Shown here: positions 1-40,797 of the stretch, piece after piece
How the letters are laid out: every line of letters starts with the position of its first letter
Position numbering within the stretch: position 1 is the first letter of the stretch
Sequence record: NC_014662.1
Origin: Enterobacter phage CC31
Length of the DNA: 64,000 nt
Strand: one strand, 5' to 3'
Made by a program: the position numbers and the translations under genes
The notes under the pieces: model-generated
What the model was told of the DNA's origin: nothing
Databases searched by the model: none
What the model saw: only the letters and a program-made list of their open reading frames with translations

Positions 1-392
1 TGTTTATACCACTTAGGCCGTTGAGCAATTTTTTCGTCCAGACGTGCTTGAGAAATTTTAAGAGCGTCAGAAGTTGGAATGTAATCATTACGCCACTCGA
101 CCGGAATATCACTAATGTCCTGGGCAGTTGTGTCCTGGATTTTAAAACCTCGTTTTAAACATTCAGCAATAATGTTGATTTGGCGTTTATGCAAGAACTC
201 AAGTTTATCATAAAAGAAAGTAACATGACCTGTACCTAAAATGAAAACCGAAGAGATTTTAAAATCCTTAAGCTTTTTACCATTTTGAACATGCTTACGA
301 ACGGCACCAAAAACACGTGGCAATTCACGATACTCAGCCATAAGATGTTGGTCGGCCAGTTCAGATACTAAAGTTAAGTTAATGCGTGTCAT
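1..392 (-). CDS. denV: Endonuclease V (pyrimidine-dimer DNA glycosylase), C-terminus off-window
   Basis: Manual minus-strand translation begins [34 protein letters not shown]..., near-identical to remembered T4 DenV; ATG at 392..390. Confidence 0.85.
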
Positions 393-451
393 TTTTAATC
401 TCCGTTTGTTTGGTATGAGAGTATCATAACATGGACAAACGGAGATGTAAA

Positions 452-742
452 CTACTTTCTAGTCAAAGATTTGATTTTTCCTACAAGTTTATCTTTCTTA
501 ATGCCTTTATGATAGTCTTTACCTACCATCATGAAATAAGTTCCAGTAGTAGGGTCAAAGTTAACAGACACACGAGTACCATTAACATCGATATCACGTT
601 GATTTATAACACGACTTACTTTACCGAATTCAGCGGCTAGAATAGTTTCAATTTCTTCTGCGCCTTTAGTAGCGGCCGCATAAAGTTCTTTGCCAGACAT
701 TTCACGTTTAGCTTCAAACATAAATTCATTATAGGTTTTCAT
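452..742 (-). CDS. Internal protein (IPII/IPIII-like) with capsid-targeting N-terminus
   Basis: In-frame start [11 protein letters not shown] matches T4 internal-protein capsid targeting sequence; lies between denV and e as in T4. Confidence 0.65.
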
Positions 743-1223
743 ATGCTTTCCAAGTACCTGTTTTAAATGTTGCAATCACGCGTTTAGCACGATTTGGTGT
801 CTGACGATACCACTTGGAATTAGCAAGCTCTTTTGCAGCTGCTTCCCATTGTTTTGATTTAAGCAGACGCATTGACGCTGGGAAACTAGCTACACCTGCT
901 ACACCCATCTGAAACACCATATTAATAAGTGCAGCACGACGAACTCCATCAAGTACATCATATACTGGTTTTAATACAGCATTTCCGAGAATCCCTCGAG
1001 TTGCTTTATCGACGTCTTTCGCAAAAATAGCTTCTGCTTCAGCTTTTGTGATTTGACCATTACATGGGCGTCCCACAAGCTTATCAAGTTCTCGTTTAGC
1101 AACATCAAGAGAAGGGTCACGTGTCAAAAGGTGACCGATACCGATTGTCCAAAAACCTTCGGTATCTTTATAGATTTTAGAATCGTATCCTTCATCGATA
1201 CGAAGCATGCCAAAAATGTCCAT
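729..1223 (-). CDS. e: Lysozyme (endolysin), T4 e-like
   Basis: 164 aa; [14 protein letters not shown] and C-terminal [20 protein letters not shown] match T4 lysozyme. Confidence 0.95.
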
Positions 1224-1256
1224 GAGGACCTCCTATCAGTTGATAGGAGTATTTAT

Positions 1257-1736
1257 TTAGCATTCCCAAAGAGCATCTTGAATGACCTTTGGATAAAGTT
1301 TCTGCATAACTGAGAAAAGACTTGGACCCATTACTACATTCCACATGCGCGGATGAATCAAAGCAAAAGCATCAATCTCCGGGAATTCATTTCCGTCTTC
1401 ATCTGTATGATATGCCGTGCAAATACAATCTCTGAATTGAGAGTGTTCCACTGGATGCATGTATTGGAAAAGATGTATATCTTTATTGCTAGCATAATCA
1501 TGACGACCTAGGTCAACCAGTAAACTCTGGTCGTAATCGACAAAGCCGGTTTCTTCACGGCATTCGCGAATAGCAGCTTCAATAGGTGTTTCACCTTCTT
1601 CAATATGGCCCTTTGGAATATCCCAGCGTGATGGCCCACCGCCTAATCCAGAATTAGTCACTCTTCCCATGAATAGTTCGTAGTCTTCGGTAAAGAAGAT
1701 AATTCCTGCAGATACTTCTTTAATTTTCTTACTCAA
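1257..1736 (-). CDS. nudE: Nudix hydrolase NudE
   Basis: 159 aa; Nudix box GHIEEGETPIEAAIRECREETG; follows e as in T4. Confidence 0.85.
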   Translation of the reverse strand: MSKKIKEVSAGIIFFTEDYELFMGRVTNSGLGGGPSRWDIPKGHIEEGETPIEAAIRECREETGFVDYDQSLLVDLGRHDYASNKDIHLFQYMHPVEHSQFRDCICTAYHTDEDGNEFPEIDAFALIHPRMWNVVMGPSLFSVMQKLYPKVIQDALWEC

Positions 1737-1963
1737 ATTTCACCCCAACTAATTTCACGAAGTCTTTGCATAATTGACTCAACTTCTTCAATCATATCTT
1801 CGTCAGAATCAAACGAACCTTCAACCATCCAATCAGAAATTGGAGTGAACATTTCCAGGCCCGTGGACAGACGATTACGAATATCATCAACTGATTCATT
1901 GTCGTTGAAGGAGTACAGGTAAGAATCAGCCGATTCAGATTTAACAAATACCGCAATACTCAT
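1733..1963 (-). CDS. Hypothetical acidic protein
   Basis: 76 aa ORF, start overlaps stop of upstream gene. Confidence 0.5.
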   Translation of the reverse strand: MSIAVFVKSESADSYLYSFNDNESVDDIRNRLSTGLEMFTPISDWMVEGSFDSDEDMIEEVESIMQRLREISWGEI

Positions 1964-5001: not shown

Positions 5002-5064
5002 AGTGTTCCTCCAGTGATTCTGGGGAAACTTTTCAGTTTCCCCATATATTACCATTAACAGCTG

Positions 5065-5137
5065 CTAGTGTACCTGGACTCGAACCAGGGAATCGTAGAA
5101 TCAAAATCTACTGCCTTACCAACTTGGCTATACCCCA
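5065..5137 (-). tRNA. tRNA-Gln (UUG), no encoded CCA, acceptor mismatch
   Basis: Manual fold: anticodon arm GTAGA-TTTTGAT-TCTAC, T-arm CCTGG-TTCGAGT-CCAGG; body close to remembered E. coli tRNA-Gln. Confidence 0.7.
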
Positions 5138-5143
5138 ACTGTT

Positions 5144-5220
5144 TGGAGGCGGGTGATGGACTCGAACCATCGCGTAACGGGATATGAACCCGTCATTCTA
5201 CCAACTGAAGTTAACCCGCA
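5144..5220 (-). tRNA. tRNA-Met/Ile2 (CAU)
   Basis: Anticodon arm ACGGG-TTCATAT-CCCGT, T-arm GATGG-TTCGAGT-CCATC, encoded CCA; position 1:72 unpaired. Confidence 0.65.
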
Positions 5221-5230
5221 CTTATCCGGA

Positions 5231-5318
5231 TTCCTGAAGTACAACGGCTGCTTTATGTAGAACTCACCTATTGTGAGGGAACAAAATCACTGGTCCTGGC
5301 ATTAATTATGGACCACCA
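5231..5318 (-). ncRNA. Candidate structured small RNA within tRNA island (not a tRNA)
   Basis: Outer 9-bp stem ttcctgaag/cttcaggaa enclosing two hairpins (GGTCC..GGACC and CTCAC..GTGAG); no T-loop motif. Confidence 0.35.
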
Positions 5319-5340
5319 TCTTCAGGAACTGCCTCGTATT

Positions 5341-5416
5341 TGGCGGACCTAACGGGATTCGAACCCGTGACTCTCACGTGACAGGCGAGTATTTTCACCG
5401 CTGAAACTATAGGTCC
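5341..5416 (-). tRNA. tRNA-Asp (GUC)
   Basis: Perfect cloverleaf: acceptor GGACCTA/TAGGTCC, anticodon arm CTCGC-CTGTCAC-GTGAG, T-arm ACGGG-TTCGAAT-CCCGT, CCA encoded. Confidence 0.8.
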
Positions 5417-5658
5417 AAATTATCTTTCGTGATTATGTGAATCCCTCAGGTTTTCCGGAAAACCGAATAGGCGACAAAAGCTCTCATATACCCGTGCACA
5501 GATATAATCTTTGTTAACTAGTGTCTGAATCAGTATAATCCGAAAGATAACTTTCGGCGCCGTATTTAATTTGAGATATGTAGTTATCGTTGAGGGAACT
5601 CATATTCAGGGATTAACATGCCGACGACTTTGTCAGAACGTCTTCCAACTTCTATATT

Positions 5659-5743
5659 TGGCGGGTCGTGCAGGTATCGAACCTGCCTAGTCATTTCTGA
5701 CACGGATTAACAGTCCGCCGCTTACCCTCTCAGCCAACGACCC
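5659..5743 (-). tRNA. Type-II (long variable arm) tRNA with Asn anticodon GUU
   Basis: 85 nt; acceptor GGGTCGT/ACGACCC, 3-bp D-stem, anticodon arm GCGGA-CTGTTAA-TCCGT, 15-nt variable hairpin GTCA-GAAA-TGAC, T-arm GCAGG-TTCGATA-CCTGC, G73, CCA. Confidence 0.6.
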
Positions 5744-5748
5744 AAATT

Positions 5749-5823
5749 TGGTTCTCCGTAAGAGAATTGAACTCTTCTTTCCGACGTGAAAGGCCGGCGT
5801 CCTAACCGATAGACGAACGGAGA
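5749..5823 (-). tRNA. tRNA-Glu (UUC)
   Basis: Acceptor TCTCCGT/ACGGAGA, anticodon arm CCGGC-CTTTCAC-GTCGG, T-arm AAGAG-TTCAATT-CTCTT, CCA encoded. Confidence 0.7.
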
Positions 5824-5824
5824 T

Positions 5825-5902
5825 TGGTAGGACGTGAGGGAGTTGAACCCATCGACATTCCGATTAAAAGTCGGATGCTCTAACCAACTGAGCTAACGTC
5901 CT
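5825..5902 (-). tRNA. tRNA-Lys (UUU), weak T-stem
   Basis: Acceptor AGGACGT/ACGTCCT, D-arm GCTC-AGTTGGTTA-GAGC, anticodon arm TCCGA-CTTTTAA-TCGGA; T-stem only 3 bp. Confidence 0.65.
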
Positions 5903-5940
5903 GTAGATATTTATAATAACAAAAATATCTTTAAGCAAAT

Positions 5941-6016
5941 TGGTGGGAATAACTGGACTCGAACCAGTGACCTAACGATTATCGGTCGTTTGCTCTACCA
6001 ACTGAGCTATATTCCC
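5941..6016 (-). tRNA. tRNA-Ile (GAU), C at position 33
   Basis: Acceptor GGGAATA/TATTCCC, D-arm GCTC-AGTTGGTA-GAGC, anticodon arm AACGA-CCGATAA-TCGTT, T-arm CACTG-GTTCGAG-TCCAG, CCA. Confidence 0.7.
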
Positions 6017-7146: not shown

Positions 7147-8157
<1,011 letters not shown>

Positions 8158-34101: not shown

Positions 34102-35670
34102 ATGAAATTTGACGTCTTAAGTTTGTTCGCGCCGTGGGCCAAAGTCGACGAACAGGAATACGACCAGCAGCTAAATAATAATTTAGAGTCTATCACGGCC
34201 CCTAAATTTGATGACGGCGCGACAGAGATTGAATCGGAACGTGGAGACATTGCAGGCGCTGGATTATTCCAGAGAATGTACGGTCAAAATGAACCGGGAA
34301 TGAAAAACACCAGGGAGCTTATCGATACTTACCGTCAGTTAATGAATAACTACGAAGTAGATAATGCTGTCCAAGAAATCGTCTTAGATGCAATCGTATA
34401 TGAAGACGAACATCCAGTAGTTGCACTGGATTTAGATAAAACAAATTTTAGCCCAGCGATTAAAGACCGACTGCAAGAAGAATTTAATGAAGTTCTTACT
34501 TGTCTGAATTTCGAAAGAAAAGGTCTCGACCATTTCCGTCGCTGGTACGTCGATTCTCGTATCTTCTTCCATAAAATTATTAACCCTAAAAACCCGAAAG
34601 AAGGTATTCAAGAGCTTCGTCGTTTAGACCCTCGCAATATTCAGTTCGTTCGTGAAGTTATCACTGACACTGAAGCGGGCGTGAAAATCGTTAAAGGCTA
34701 CAAAGAATATTTCGTTTATAACACCGGTCACGAATCTTATCAATGTGACGGTCGAATTTACGACGCTGGAACAAAAATTAAAATTCCAAAGGCTGCAGTT
34801 GTTTATGCACACTCTGGATTAGTTGATTGCTCAGGAAGAAACATCATCGGTTATTTGCACCGAGCTGTTAAACCTGCAAACCAGCTTAAACTGCTTGAAG
34901 ACGCAATGGTGATTTATCGTATTACACGTGCACCAGACCGTCGAGTATTTTACATTGACACAGGGAATATGCCTTCCCGTAAAGCTGCTGCTCATATGCA
35001 ACACATCATGAACACCATGAAAAACCGTGTGGTATATGATGCATCTACTGGTAAGATTAAAAACCAGCAGCATAATATGTCAATGACAGAAGATTATTGG
35101 TTACAGCGTCGTGACGGTAAAGCTGTTACTGAAATCGATAATATGCCTGGTGCTACTGGTATGAACGAAATGGACGATGTCCGTTGGTTCAAGAACAACC
35201 TTTACCAAGCATTACGTGTTCCACTGTCTCGTATTCCGAACGACCAGCAAGGCGGAGTTCAATTCGATGCGGGTACAGGTATTACGCGTGACGAGTTACA
35301 GTTTGCTAAATTCATTCGTGAATTGCAGCATAAGTTCGAAGAAATTTTCCTCGACCCTCTTAGAACGAATCTTGTTTTAAAAGGCGTAATGAGCGAAGAT
35401 GATTGGAAAGATGAAATAAATAACATTAAGATAGTATTTCATCGTGACAGTTACTTCACTGAACTTAAAGATGCTGAAGTTACCGAACGCAGATTCAATA
35501 TGCTTCAAATGGCCGAACCGTTTATCGGTAAGTATATTTCTCACCAGACAGCTATGAAGACTATTCTTCAAATGACTGATGAACAAATTGAACAAGAGGC
35601 TAAGCAAATTGAGCTAGAGTCTAAAGAGGCTCGTTTCCAAGACCCAGACCAAGAACAAGAGGATTTCTAA
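34102..35670 (+). CDS. 20: gp20 portal vertex
   Basis: Start at [14 protein letters not shown] (ATG 34102 after GGAGA); track start at 34090 is a TTG. Confidence 0.95.
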
Positions 35671-35912
35671 TGGAAGATTTCATCTCCGCACTCAAATCCA
35701 ACGACCTCGTTAAAGCAAAGAAAGCCTTTGGTGCTATTATGCTTGAACAGACCGCTGATTTGATTAGCCAACGTCGTGTTGAGATTGCCCAATCTATTAT
35801 GATTGAAGGCGAAGAAAAAGAAGACGACGAAGACGAGAATGATGATTCTGAAGATGAAGGTAAAGAAAAACCTGAATCTAAAGATGAAAAAGATTCTGAA
35901 GACGAAGACTAA
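35670..35912 (+). CDS. 67: gp67 prohead core protein
   Basis: 80 aa, highly acidic C-terminus; between 20 and 68. Confidence 0.85.
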   Translation: MEDFISALKSNDLVKAKKAFGAIMLEQTADLISQRRVEIAQSIMIEGEEKEDDEDENDDSEDEGKEKPESKDEKDSEDED

Positions 35913-35927
35913 GAATAAGGAGTCGCA

Positions 35928-36353
35928 ATGCTGATTGTTCCTGATGAGTACGAAGTCGTACTTGAAAACATCGAAGCAGCTATTCCTGAAGCCGAATCTC
36001 GTTTTAAGCAGTTGTCAGAAGCTCTCGATAAAGCAGACATAAATACAATTGTAGAAAACATGTTGCCAATTGAACCTGAAGTAGCAATTGCTATGGGTTC
36101 ACTGAATGAAGAAATGCAGCTCAATGAATTTATCGTTAAGCATGTTTCTTCTCGTGGAGAAATTACGCGTACTAAAGACCGTAAAACCCGCGAGCGTCAA
36201 GCATTCCAAACAACTGGTTTATCTAAAGCTAAACGTCGCGCTATCGCTCGAAAAGTCGTTAAGTCCAAACGCGCTAATCCGTCTGGTACTGTACGAGGCA
36301 ACCGCAAACGTAAGAAAGCTATGAAACGTCGTCAGGCGTTAGGATTAAGCTAA
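35928..36353 (+). CDS. 68: gp68 prohead core protein
   Basis: 141 aa; synteny. Confidence 0.85.
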
Positions 36354-36994
36354 TGAATGAACCCCAATTACTCATTGAGCATTGGGGTCAACCCGGCGAA
36401 ATTTTGAATGGCGTACCGATGCTTGAGTCATACGATGGCTCAGATGCTGGGCTAAAACCTGGATTATACATCGAAGGCGTGTTCATGCAAGCCGAAGTAG
36501 TTAACCGAAATAAGCGTCTTTATCCAAAGAGAGTGTTGGAAAAAGCCGTAGCTAATTATATTAAAGAGCAGGTTTCTACTAAACAAGCACTTGGAGAATT
36601 AAATCACCCACCACGTGCTAACGTTGACCCGATGCAAGCCGCAATCATCATCGAAGATATGTGGTGGAAAGGAAACGATGTTTATGGACGAGCTCGTATT
36701 ATTGAAGGTGACCACGGTCCTGGAGATAAACTCGCTGCAAACATTCGTGCTGGCTGGATTCCTGGAGTATCTAGTCGTGGACTAGGCTCATTAACGGAAA
36801 CCAATAAAGGCTACCGTATCGTAAACGAAGGATTTAAACTCACCGTTGGCGTTGATGCTGTGTGGGGACCTTCTGCACCAGATGCTTGGGTAACTCCGAA
36901 GCAGATTTCGGAATCCGCTGAGGCGCAAGTCGCCAAAAAGAATGACGATGAGTCATTTAAAGCTCTCGTAGAGAGTCTCGAAAAAGCATTATAA
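36353..36994 (+). CDS. 21: gp21 prohead core protease
   Basis: 213 aa (T4 212); synteny. Confidence 0.9.
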   Translation: MNEPQLLIEHWGQPGEILNGVPMLESYDGSDAGLKPGLYIEGVFMQAEVVNRNKRLYPKRVLEKAVANYIKEQVSTKQALGELNHPPRANVDPMQAAIIIEDMWWKGNDVYGRARIIEGDHGPGDKLAANIRAGWIPGVSSRGLGSLTETNKGYRIVNEGFKLTVGVDAVWGPSAPDAWVTPKQISESAEAQVAKKNDDESFKALVESLEKAL

Positions 36995-36997
36995 ATA
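36990..36997 (+). promoter_or_regulatory. Late promoter box TATAAATA for gene 22
   Basis: Exact TATAAATA overlapping gene 21 stop, 31 nt upstream of gene 22. Confidence 0.65.
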
Positions 36998-37027
36998 ATA
37001 ATGTAACTTAACAACAGGACTAACAAA

Positions 37028-37843
37028 ATGCTGAAAGACATCCTGCTCCAGGAAGCTCAGAATATTGAAGCTACCGTAGCTGTGGACAGTATTTTCGAAT
37101 CGGTCGAGCTTTCTCCGGAAGTAAAAGCGAAGTTCGAAACTGTATTCGAAGCAACTGTAAAGAAACATGCCGTTGAACTGGCTGAATCCCACATTACCAA
37201 AATTGCTGAAATGGCTGACGAAAAGCTGAAAGATGCTAAAGACGAAGCCGAAGAAAAAGCTGAAAAGAAACTGACTGAACATGCTTCTCGTTTCTTCAAT
37301 CACATCGCTCAAGAATGGATGAATGAAAACAAACTGGCTGTTGATAAAGGCATCAAAGCTGAACTGTTTGAATCCATGTTCGCTGGTATGAAAGAACTGT
37401 TCGTTGAACACAACGTTGTTCTGCCAGAAGAATCAGTTGATGTAGTTGCTGAAATGGAAGAAGAACTGGCTGAAGCTCGTGAAGAAATCAGCAATCTGTT
37501 CGAAGGTATTTCTGCTCGCGACGAAAAAATTAATACCATGCTGCGTGAAAGCGCTGTAATGGAATCAACTAAAGACTTGACCGACGTTCAGAAAGAGAAA
37601 GTAGCTTCTCTGACCGAAGGTATGGAATATTCCGACGAATTCTCAAGTAAGCTGTCTGCCATCGTCGAAATGGTTAAAGGCTCCGTCGAGAAAGAGGTAG
37701 TAAATGAAAGCATAAATACTACCGACAATGATGCTGACGGTCTCAACTTCATTACTGAAGAACATATTGAGCCAGAAGAAAAAGTATCAAAACAGCCATC
37801 GATGATGGACGCATACGTAGCCTCTGCGGCACGTCTTTCTTAA
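37028..37843 (+). CDS. 22: gp22 prohead scaffold
   Basis: 271 aa acidic coiled-coil; synteny. Confidence 0.9.
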   Translation: MLKDILLQEAQNIEATVAVDSIFESVELSPEVKAKFETVFEATVKKHAVELAESHITKIAEMADEKLKDAKDEAEEKAEKKLTEHASRFFNHIAQEWMNENKLAVDKGIKAELFESMFAGMKELFVEHNVVLPEESVDVVAEMEEELAEAREEISNLFEGISARDEKINTMLRESAVMESTKDLTDVQKEKVASLTEGMEYSDEFSSKLSAIVEMVKGSVEKEVVNESINTTDNDADGLNFITEEHIEPEEKVSKQPSMMDAYVASAARLS

Positions 37844-37865
37844 TTTTTAAAAGGTTATAAAACAC

Positions 37866-39428
37866 ATGAAAAAGATTAATCCGTTAGTAGAAAAATGGAC
37901 TCCGCTGCTTGAGAACGAAGCACTGCCTGAAATCGTTGGTGCTGGTAAAAAAGCTCTGATTGCAAAAATCATGGAAAACCAGGAATCAGCTATTAAAACT
38001 GAACCTGCATTCCGTGATGAAAAAATCGCTGAAGCATTTGGTTCGTTCCTGACTGAAGCAGAAATTGGTGGTGACCACGGTTATGATGCTCAGAACATCG
38101 CTGCTGGCCAAACCTCTGGTGCAGTAACTCAGATTGGACCAGCTGTTATGGGCATGGTACGTCGTGCAATTCCTAACCTGATTGCTTTCGACATCTGTGG
38201 TGTTCAGCCAATGAGTTCTCCTACCGGTCAGGTATTCGCTCTGCGTGCCGTTTACGGTAAAGACCCTCTGGCTGCTGGTGCTAAAGAAGCATTCCACCCA
38301 ATGTACGCTCCAGATGCAATGTTCTCTGGTCAGGGTGCTGCTGAGAAATTCGCTGCTGTAAAAGCTGCTGACGTTCTGACTGTTGGTACTATCGTAGTTC
38401 ACGATTTCGCTGATGTTGGTCGCGCTTACTTCCAGGTTGCTGAAGGTTTCACAGTAGATGCTGGTGCTACCGATGCTGAAAAACTGGATAAAGCAGTTAA
38501 AGCTGCTGAAGAAGCTGGTCAGCTGGTAGAAATCGCTGAAGGTATGGCTACCTCCGTAGCTGAACTGCAGGAAAACTTCAACGGTTCTACTGATAACCCA
38601 TGGAATGAAATGGGCTTCCGTATCGATAAACAAGTTATCGAAGCTAAATCCCGTCAGCTGAAAGCTCAGTACTCTATTGAACTGGCTCAAGATTTACGTG
38701 CTGTTCACGGTATGGACGCGGATGCTGAACTGTCTGGTATCCTGGCTACCGAAATCATGCTGGAAATCAACCGCGAAGTTGTAGATTGGATTAACTACTC
38801 TGCTCAACTGGGTAAAACCGGTATGACTCAGACTGTTGGTTCTAAAGCTGGTGTATTTGACTTCCAGGACCCAGTAGATATTCGTGGCGCTCGTTGGGCA
38901 GGTGAAAGCTTCAAAGCTCTGCTGTTCCAAATCGACAAAGAAGCTGCTGAAATCGCACGTCAGACTGGTCGTGGTGCTGGTAACTTCATCATCGCTTCTC
39001 GTAACGTAGTTAACGCTCTGGCAGCTGTTGATACTGGCGTTACTCCTGCTGCTCAGGGTCTGGGTCAAGGCTTCAATGCTGATACCACTAAGACTGTGTT
39101 CGCAGGTATTCTGGGCGGTCGTTATAAAGTATACATCGACCAGTACGCTCGTCAGGACTACTTCACCATTGGTTACAAAGGTGCTAACGAGATGGATGCT
39201 GGTATCTACTACGCTCCATACGTTGCTCTGACTCCACTGCGTGGTTCCGACCCTAAAAACTTCCAGCCAGTCATGGGCTTCAAAACCCGTTACGGTATTG
39301 GTATCAACCCGTTTGCTGATAGTGCATCACAGCAGCCGAATGCTCGCATTCAGTCTGGTATGCCTTCTATCGTCAACTCTGTTGGTAAGAACGCGTACTT
39401 CCGTCGCATCTGGGTTAAAGGTCTGTAA
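37866..39428 (+). CDS. 23: gp23 major capsid protein
   Basis: 520 aa; long stretches identical to remembered T4 gp23 (GAVTQIGPAVMGMVRRAIPNLIAFDICGVQPM). Confidence 0.97.
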   Translation: MKKINPLVEKWTPLLENEALPEIVGAGKKALIAKIMENQESAIKTEPAFRDEKIAEAFGSFLTEAEIGGDHGYDAQNIAAGQTSGAVTQIGPAVMGMVRRAIPNLIAFDICGVQPMSSPTGQVFALRAVYGKDPLAAGAKEAFHPMYAPDAMFSGQGAAEKFAAVKAADVLTVGTIVVHDFADVGRAYFQVAEGFTVDAGATDAEKLDKAVKAAEEAGQLVEIAEGMATSVAELQENFNGSTDNPWNEMGFRIDKQVIEAKSRQLKAQYSIELAQDLRAVHGMDADAELSGILATEIMLEINREVVDWINYSAQLGKTGMTQTVGSKAGVFDFQDPVDIRGARWAGESFKALLFQIDKEAAEIARQTGRGAGNFIIASRNVVNALAAVDTGVTPAAQGLGQGFNADTTKTVFAGILGGRYKVYIDQYARQDYFTIGYKGANEMDAGIYYAPYVALTPLRGSDPKNFQPVMGFKTRYGIGINPFADSASQQPNARIQSGMPSIVNSVGKNAYFRRIWVKGL

Positions 39429-39439
39429 TCCAATTAAAT

Positions 39440-39468
39440 GGGAGCCGCAAGGCTCCCATTGTTGTTTC
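39440..39468 (+). terminator. GCAA-tetraloop hairpin plus T-rich tail after gene 23
   Basis: gggagccGCAAggctccc followed by attgttgtttct. Confidence 0.6.
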
Positions 39469-39513
39469 TACGGATGATAAATAAAAGTATAATCCACTAG
39501 AGGAAAAGCGACG

Positions 39514-40797
39514 ATGGCTAACATCCATGACCTTCTGCGCGAATCAACTACAACGACGAGTTCAATTTCTGCCCGTCCTAGCCTCGTTGCATTGACTCGC
39601 GCTACTACTAAATTAATTTACTCTGATATTGTAGCTACTCAGCGTACTACTCAACCTACTGCTGCTTTCTACGGTATCAAATATTTGAACCCTAACAAAG
39701 AATTAACGTTCCTTACTGGTGCTACCTACGCAGGTCAAACTGGTACTGAGGACCGTAAATCTATTGAAACATTAACTGCTTCAAATAAAGATTCATTTGG
39801 CAAGGGTGATTTGTTCAAATACGATGACATTGTTTACAAAGTACTTGTAGATAATCCATTTGACCAGATTACTGAAACTGATTTAGAAGTTGTAATTCAG
39901 ATTTCTCTGGTTAAACTCACTACTCGTTTAATGTCTGACGCTGCTATCACTTCCAAGTTTGAAACTGCTGGAGCTGATATCGCTGAAGCTAAATTCCAAA
40001 TTGATAAATGGCAGACTCAAGTTAAATCTCGTAAACTTAAAACGAGCTTGACTGTTGAATTGGCCCAGGACCTTGAAGCTAATGGCTTTGATGCTTCCAA
40101 TTTTATCGATGATTTACTGGCTACTGAAATGGCCGATGAAATTAACAAAGACATTTTACAAAGTCTTGTGACAGTTTCAAAACGATATAAAGTTGAAGGT
40201 ATCACAGATACTGGATTCATCGATTTATCTTATGCATCTGCTCCAGAAGCTGGTCGTTCTCTGTATCGCATGGTATGCGAAATGGTTTCTCATATTCAGC
40301 GCTCAACATCCTTTACGGCAACATTCGCTGTAGCATCTACTCGTGCTGCTGCTGTTCTTGCTGCATCAGGTTGGTTGAAGCATAAACCTGAAGATGATGA
40401 TTATCTGTCACAGAACGCTTATGGTTTCCTGGCAAACGGTTTGCCTCTGTATTGCGATACTAACACTCCACTCGATTATGTAATCGTCGGTGTAGTAGAA
40501 GATATTGGTGATAAAGAAGTTGTATCGAGTATTTTCTATGCTCCATACACTGAAGGTATCGACCTTGATGACCCGGAACACGTTGGTGCATTTAAAGTAA
40601 TTGTTGACCCAGAAAGCTTACAGCCTTCTGTAGCTTTATTCGTTCGTTATGCATTGTCTGCTAACCCGTATACTGTAGCTAAAGATGAAAAGGAAGCTCG
40701 AATCATTGATGGCGGGGATATGGATAAGATGGCAGGACGTTCTGATTTATCAGTTCTTCTTGGTGTTAAGTTACCAAAAATCATCATTGAAGACTAA
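39514..40797 (+). CDS. 24: gp24 capsid vertex protein
   Basis: 427 aa (T4 427); gp23-like fold motifs. Confidence 0.92.
   Translation: MANIHDLLRESTTTTSSISARPSLVALTRATTKLIYSDIVATQRTTQPTAAFYGIKYLNPNKELTFLTGATYAGQTGTEDRKSIETLTASNKDSFGKGDLFKYDDIVYKVLVDNPFDQITETDLEVVIQISLVKLTTRLMSDAAITSKFETAGADIAEAKFQIDKWQTQVKSRKLKTSLTVELAQDLEANGFDASNFIDDLLATEMADEINKDILQSLVTVSKRYKVEGITDTGFIDLSYASAPEAGRSLYRMVCEMVSHIQRSTSFTATFAVASTRAAAVLAASGWLKHKPEDDDYLSQNAYGFLANGLPLYCDTNTPLDYVIVGVVEDIGDKEVVSSIFYAPYTEGIDLDDPEHVGAFKVIVDPESLQPSVALFVRYALSANPYTVAKDEKEARIIDGGDMDKMAGRSDLSVLLGVKLPKIIIED

Follow-up and report, generated by a model that had tools for sequence, protein, structure and literature searches.

CC31p131 of Enterobacter phage CC31: an internal-protein gene between e and denV with a T4-type capsid-targeting sequence and a probable cassette-like body

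The stretch of the Enterobacter phage CC31 genome analysed here (64,000 nucleotides of NC_014662.1; hereafter, the window) begins within the endonuclease V gene, denV, of which the first 130 codons lie on the minus strand at 1–392 before being cut by the window edge (assigned from the translation and from PF03013 on orthologues). Upstream on the same strand is CC31p131 (452–742; ATG at 742–740, TAG stop at 454–452), an open reading frame of 96 codons identified from the ORF list and its translation, the product of which exactly matches YP_004009989.1, "hypothetical protein CC31p131 [Enterobacter phage CC31]"; the initial annotation was, thus, right to place a reading frame between denV and e. 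The lysozyme gene, e, is also on the minus strand at 729–1223, as judged from its reading frame, from database matches annotated as lysozyme or endolysin, and from PF00959 on the orthologue. Its last 14 nt overlap the start of CC31p131, such that its TAA stop falls within codons 4–5 of the latter. The CC31p131 reading frame divides into a capsid-targeting sequence, or tag, of ten codons (713–742, minus), with a predicted gp21 cleavage site after Glu10, and a mature body of 86 aa (455–712, minus; computed mass 9.55 kDa, computed pI 9.7), which behaves as an exchangeable cassette. denV starts 59 nt downstream, and the spacer between the two genes (393–451, minus), in which a promoter scan and RNA folding delineate a sigma-70-like promoter and a 12-bp hairpin, has no space for a second gene. 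CC31p131 is a real and conserved internal-protein (ip) gene, the body family of which is called hypothetical or left unannotated in public records, and it is under purifying selection (dN/dS about 0.16), with values of 0.15–0.17 against homologues at dS 0.8–1.1. We consider it highly likely that the product is a packaged and processed internal protein, and probable that it is an internal head protein of the T4 type with a cassette-like body.

Seven of the first ten residues of CC31p131 are identical to those of the T4 capsid-targeting sequence. Tyr4, Phe7 and Glu10 are as in T4, and residue 8 is Met where T4 has Ile. The first ten residues of T4 IpIII are enough for packaging; residues 4 and 7 of the tag matter for targeting, residues 8 and 10 for processing, and even tags in which cleavage is blocked (Asp10) are still packaged (PMC9026906). 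When a loose tag pattern was run against the six-frame translation of the window, two matches were obtained, where composition predicts 0.0017 and 200 shuffles gave none, and both of these begin open reading frames at two loci where T4 keeps ip genes. The capsid-targeting sequence that had been proposed from the start of the reading frame is, therefore, well founded, both in its identity to the T4 tag and in a pattern far above chance. In ip genes that overlap e, the fifth tag codon is without exception AAT, AAC or AAA, encoding Asn or Lys (window 729–742; junctions in L002, L005, L007 and L015–L019), since tAT-AAn supplies the TAA at which e terminates; Gln (CAA) at this codon, as in the MKTYQEF of T4, would abolish the e stop. 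Asn5 tags elsewhere, as in PEi20 gp126 and CC31p129, may be a sign of an earlier stay in the e-adjacent slot. Two further sets of tagged proteins, both with no obvious relatives among those examined, were also seen: two proteins, of 132 and 76 aa, encoded on either side of denV in a single metagenomic contig (L018 2785–3183 and 3668–3898), and, in the environmental contigs L021–L035, a family of ~175-aa proteins that are very basic, rich in Lys, Arg and Gly, and tagged MKTYKEFMLE/C (the slash marks the cut).

The interval between e and denV is a canonical ip hotspot, as it is for ipII and ipIII in T4, another being the interval between 57B and the tRNA genes. The T4 order is denV-ipII-ipIII-e, so that the initial annotation placed both T4 genes here correctly; the accompanying claim, that CC31 has a single internal protein where T4 has two, survives only in part. 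There is indeed one gene between e and denV, but a second, CC31p129, sits just past denV, at 34–330 nt to the left of window position 1 (L036 760–1056); the CC31 sequence to the left of the window was provided by IMG/VR contig UViG_650627040, 1,587 nt of which are 100% identical to window 280–1866. CC31p129 encodes 98 aa of the phrog_3966 type beginning MKTYNEFITE/AAEQ, is annotated as hypothetical, and starts 9 nt after the denV stop; vs.8 comes next. The "single" ip gene is, therefore, an effect of the window edge, and a plain loss by CC31 of one of the two T4 genes was rejected, as the second gene lies beyond denV. The CC31p129 allele is the only ip gene beside e in PG7-type phages.

The order e-IP-denV-IP is common to CC31 and L007, and variations on it are found in relatives: e-IP-denV-IP-IP in L015 and CIP9, e-IP-denV-IpIII in L017, e-IP-IP-denV-IP in L018, e-IP-IP-denV in PEi20, e-IpIII-denV-IP-IP in Entb_45 (the two genes after denV being inferred from CIP9) and e-IP-vs.8, with no denV here, in KaAlpha. 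One gene in the e-denV slot is the usual state for the family (seven of the nine distinct loci examined). The second match in the tag-pattern scan is a gene of the Ip7 type at the ipI locus (7147–7455, minus), directly after 57B; it is named "Ip7 protein" and matches phrog_2667 with E=1.8e-42. Its reading frame, of 102 aa, begins 4 nt before 57B ends and is followed by seven tRNA genes (5064–6016).

The window also encodes the proteins of the prohead core. The genes for gp67, gp21, gp22, gp23 and gp24 span 35670–40797: gp21 (36353–36994, plus; Pfam Peptidase_S77, E=4.6e-104) is the core protease and the predicted tag-removing enzyme, and gp22 (37028–37843, plus; Pfam T4_CASP, E=1e-89) is the scaffold protein, making up the core that the tag would bind. 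Pfam matches were likewise obtained for gp67, gp23 and gp24; the reading frame in the gp68 position (35928–36353) has no Pfam match.

CC31p131 is matched over its full length by phrog_27873 (residues 1–95 to 1–95 of 95, E=3.8e-59), and a Pfam search with it gave nothing above threshold. The family is rare. Among 50,697 phage records, matches were confined to gp126 of the Edwardsiella phages PEi20/PEi26 (75% amino acid identity) and to a reading frame after 57B in JS98, JS10 and MN04 (31–33% identity), all with the same tag and length as CC31p131, and among 5.8 billion proteins it makes up only seven clusters. These proteins are true homologues of the CC31p131 body, and they are annotated as hypothetical or not at all. 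The JS98 frame, a tagged ORF of 97 aa (L003 3001–3294; JS98 72263–72553), is also present in JS10 and has no annotation in either record; sequence comparison assigns the JS98/JS10 protein to the CC31p131 family as a distant member. The body is confidently predicted to adopt a small α+β fold: the AlphaFold2 model (pLDDT 87.5) has a helix at 4–39, five strands and a Lys-rich C-terminal helix at 83–93. Non-synonymous changes (dN) accumulate up to ~5 times faster in the N-terminal helix than in the sheet and C-terminal helix.

The initial annotation had called the body divergent, and comparison with T4 IpII and IpIII agrees (body-only BLASTP E>0.9): against IpII there was no match at E<=10, and against IpIII the best E was 5.0. 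With the tag removed, the body has no similarity to T4 IpI, IpII, IpIII, Ip7 or the other ip alleles at the locus, and PHROG matches to other ip families cover the tag only. A sequence profile searched against the PDB returned chance matches only (E>0.6), Foldseek against the PDB gave no informative structural match (best E 0.11), and a BFVD search found only family members and a weak match to a protein of Aeromonas phage phiAS5. Neither sequence nor fold similarity to IpI*, IpII or IpIII was found and, therefore, the target cannot be inferred by homology.

Several apparent relationships were discarded. Orthology with T4 IpII (phrog_7857) or IpIII (phrog_5341/PF26861) is not borne out by any mature-body similarity in BLASTP or Pfam, and kinship with the Ip7 family, suggested by a weak phrog_2667 match over residues 1–84, is driven by the tag, the body-only profile–profile probability being 2.7%. 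A gapped-global "identity" of 74% between the body and Entb_45 is an artefact, as BLASTP finds no similarity between the body and the Entb_45 protein, an orthologue of IpIII; true IpIII orthologues are present in relatives, namely in Entb_45 (88% identity) and L017 (PF26861). Two large repetitive proteins from the exhaustive profile search were also set aside, P0009, with ~20 repeats of a "QKIDIDVNG" motif, as spurious, and P0010, which was taken as such.

At the nucleotide level, different parts of the locus have different closest relatives. The e gene is closest to that of Karamvirus pg7 (KaAlpha), with 95% identity, and the tag is 83–100% identical in all relatives. The body is about 80% identical to that of PEi20 (also L005) and has no homology to the other alleles in the slot (KaAlpha, CIP9 and Kosakonia 305), the 53–59% given by a forced global alignment being at chance level. 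Beyond it, the spacer is 100% identical to that of Kosakonia phage 305 (Kanagawavirus), and denV is 88% identical to that of Kanagawavirus (CIP9 and Kosakonia 305). Megablast homology to all PG7-type genomes, from which CC31p131 is missing despite flanks that are about 95% identical, ends inside the tag, at 722 or 739. The comparison of KaAlpha with L007, the closest relative of CC31, resolves the event at base level: the two align in two blocks, the overlap of which is the 32-nt tag, and KaAlpha corresponds to L007 without the 775 bp (body, spacer and denV) that lie between two 32-nt tag repeats (L007 4001–4807 against L001, that is KaAlpha, 2490–2521; window 711–742). A difference bounded in this way implies that the UV-repair gene denV was lost (or gained) by tag-to-tag recombination in PG7-type phages. 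At the e-ip locus, to which the observation applies, PG7-type Karamvirus genomes are without denV.

In PEi20, too, the two tags are direct repeats, 33 nt long and differing at one position, and the arrangement seen in CC31 would result if they recombined. The same body follows e in CC31-like contigs, is the second of two ip genes in PEi20 and occupies the ipI locus in JS98. Taken together, these sequence comparisons show the conserved tag DNA to be the homology that allows bodies to be exchanged, lost and transferred from one slot to another. The locus, therefore, offers a base-level case of the tag as portable homology, encompassing a body swap, moves between two ip loci and the collateral loss of denV in PG7-type phages. 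According to PMC12373910 and PMC9026906, both citing Repoila et al. 1994, T-even phages have a similar, hyperplastic ip locus, in that unrelated bodies stand behind one conserved tag and their presence or absence varies among close relatives; what the present locus would add to the picture these papers give is that the exchange points are mapped, at e-denV of Karamvirus and Kanagawavirus, and that one tag-to-tag event takes denV out as well.

When only the body was used as query, an exhaustive profile search recovered two distant homologues that have no tag (hhalign probability 96–97%). One of these belongs to Yersinia phage MHG19, where its gene sits in the early region, between gene 52, a SprT-like gene and motA, and it independently matches the JS98 protein by tblastn (E=6e-7). 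Its annotated TTG start (L010 1791–2090) is probably wrong, an ATG at 1830 being likelier. This ATG has GGAG 8 nt upstream and a strong sigma-70-like promoter of early type, TTTACA-17-TAGAAT, at 1755–1783; the reading frame that starts from it encodes 86 aa, that is, the body alone. By its sequence context, the MHG19 homologue argues that the body works early in the cytoplasm and not as a component of the head. A speculative extension would be that the body constitutes a stand-alone anti-defence effector domain with two delivery routes, via the tag and the capsid in CC31, PEi20 and JS98, and through tag-less immediate-early transcription in MHG19, and with a target other than the GmrSD variants blocked by Ip1–3; we regard this as unlikely, albeit worth stating. 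If it is true, gain or loss of the tag would be a general way to retime an effector, and the body family would supply a matched pair for asking whether pre-loading matters.

CC31p131 shares its locus and ten-residue tag with T4 IpII and IpIII, and its mature product is, like IpII (90 aa, pI 9.6), small and basic; by analogy, the route of packaging, gp21 cleavage and injection is presumably the same. It differs from them in its body, which has no detectable similarity to theirs, in Met at residue 8 of the tag, in the placement of the second CC31 gene on the far side of denV, where T4 has both of its genes between e and denV, and in its expression, the T4 genes having their own intergenic promoter region, whereas CC31p131 overlaps e instead. 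No canonical late promoter, TATAAATA, was found near CC31p131; given this and the overlap, it is probably transcribed late, together with e. The N-terminal ten residues would then direct the protein into the gp22 scaffolding core of the prohead, as indicated by the T4 experiments with the same tag, and gp21 is expected to cut after Glu10 (M-F-E/A), releasing the 86-aa, 9.55-kDa basic protein to be kept in the head with the DNA. It would be ejected along with the DNA and act in the first moments of infection.

The most likely target, by analogy with T4 Ip1, Ip2 and Ip3, would be a type IV restriction enzyme of the GmrSD family, a host nuclease directed against DNA with glucosyl-hmC, which the protein would bind and block. 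The injected anti-defence cargo suggested in the initial annotation is the accepted paradigm for such proteins: each of these three T4 proteins inhibits a distinct GmrSD enzyme, with no cross-protection, and Ip4–10 gave no reproducible inhibition of other GmrSD variants, so that not every internal protein need inhibit GmrSD (PMC12373910). CC31 encodes gene 42, beta-gt, beta-alpha-gt and arn (PMC2993671), all outside the window, and so its DNA is expected to contain glucosyl-hmC (PMC2993671, PMC6024577). The prototype for the mechanism proposed here is T4 IPI*, the inhibitor of GmrSD (CT596), for which there is an NMR structure with β sheets flanked by N- and C-terminal helices (PMC3012670); CC31p131 is of comparable size, and the secondary-structure layout of its model resembles this published description. 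The T4 precedent and the expected glucosyl-hmC together make an injected, subtype-specific inhibitor of a type IV restriction enzyme from the hosts of CC31 the best guess. On these analogies, an anti-defence function of some kind is somewhat favoured; that CC31p131 is specifically an inhibitor of a GmrSD-type enzyme can be put forward only tentatively. GmrSD inhibition is known for three T4 internal proteins, and many other tagged bodies are without a target; CC31p131 represents a rare, conserved and confidently folded body family and is, thus, well suited to being screened for anti-defence activity in hosts such as Enterobacter and E. coli.

A packaged internal protein could also be aimed at something other than GmrSD, either another defence system or a host-takeover target at the onset of infection. 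The apparent early-expression set-up of the tag-less MHG19 homologue would fit such a role, as does the apparent lack of kinship between the body and Ip1–3 in sequence and fold, and T4 provides a precedent in Alt and ModA/ModB, packaged and early paralogues, respectively, with a non-restriction target. The absence of a reproducible GmrSD target for Ip4–10 is also in its favour, but every T4 internal protein with a known target acts on GmrSD (PMC12373910), and the predicted glucosyl-hmC DNA makes type IV enzymes the obvious threat to CC31; we, therefore, rate a non-GmrSD target as rather unlikely. A mainly structural role for the packaged protein, in charge neutralization, DNA organization or, as for T4 IpIII, assistance with head assembly, would be compatible with the basic character of the mature protein (pI 9.7) and its Lys-rich C-terminal helix, and T4 IpIII mutants are slower in head assembly (PMC9026906). 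Against this, the gene is dispensable at the level of the lineage, as its absence between ~95% identical flanks in PG7-type phages illustrates, unrelated bodies replace that of CC31p131 in the same slot, and the early-expression set-up of the tag-less homologue would be senseless for a head component. A structural role is, thus, improbable.

The remaining alternative concerns the tag itself. The gp21 motif is (L/I)-x-E at residues 8–10, and CC31p131 has Glu10 but Met at residue 8; had the tag decayed, such that Met8 blocks gp21 cleavage, the protein would be made but remain unprocessed or unpackaged. The status of residue 8 as a processing determinant in T4 IpIII lends some weight to this, and Met is absent at this position from the variants tried in T4 suppressor experiments (PMC9026906); moreover, all other members of the CC31p131 body family have Ile or Leu here. 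However, a scan of IMG/VR for MKTYxEFMxE found F-M-x-E, likewise placed, in no fewer than five further families of tagged bodies, one of them from Karamvirus Pet-CM3-4, and its recurrence suggests that Met8 is probably tolerated for processing. The L007 copy, which is 98% identical to CC31p131, also retains Met8, the gene is under purifying selection, and the packaging of the Asp10 tags in T4 further detracts from a decayed tag, which we consider very improbable. The preferred reading remains that of a packaged and processed protein, most plausibly with an anti-defence function.

Elements that may control expression were also noted on either side of the gene. The region upstream of e has a late promoter close to consensus, TAAATAAATA, and an 8-bp hairpin (CTCCTATC/GATAGGAG; window 1230–1259) that contains the e Shine-Dalgarno sequence. 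In T4, e is under translational control by a Shine-Dalgarno hairpin, and the layout of hairpin and late promoter upstream of e in CC31 resembles this arrangement. In the ip-denV spacer, the sigma-70-like promoter (451–423) matches at 10/12 positions and has the additional TG, and its −10 element lies in the loop of the spacer hairpin, the arms of which (446–435 and 409–398) pair the denV Shine-Dalgarno sequence (403–400). The RNA fold of this hairpin has a predicted energy of −21.9 kcal/mol (z=−5.2). According to the model, therefore, read-through transcripts from e and the ip gene would mask the denV ribosome site, whereas transcripts from the internal promoter would not. The same design is seen in T4, CC31 and PEi20 with different arm sequences, that is, with compensatory changes, and with z-scores of −3.0 to −6.4; the hairpins compared were window 398–446, L004 1848–1920, L002 3283–3356 and L005 4286–4360.
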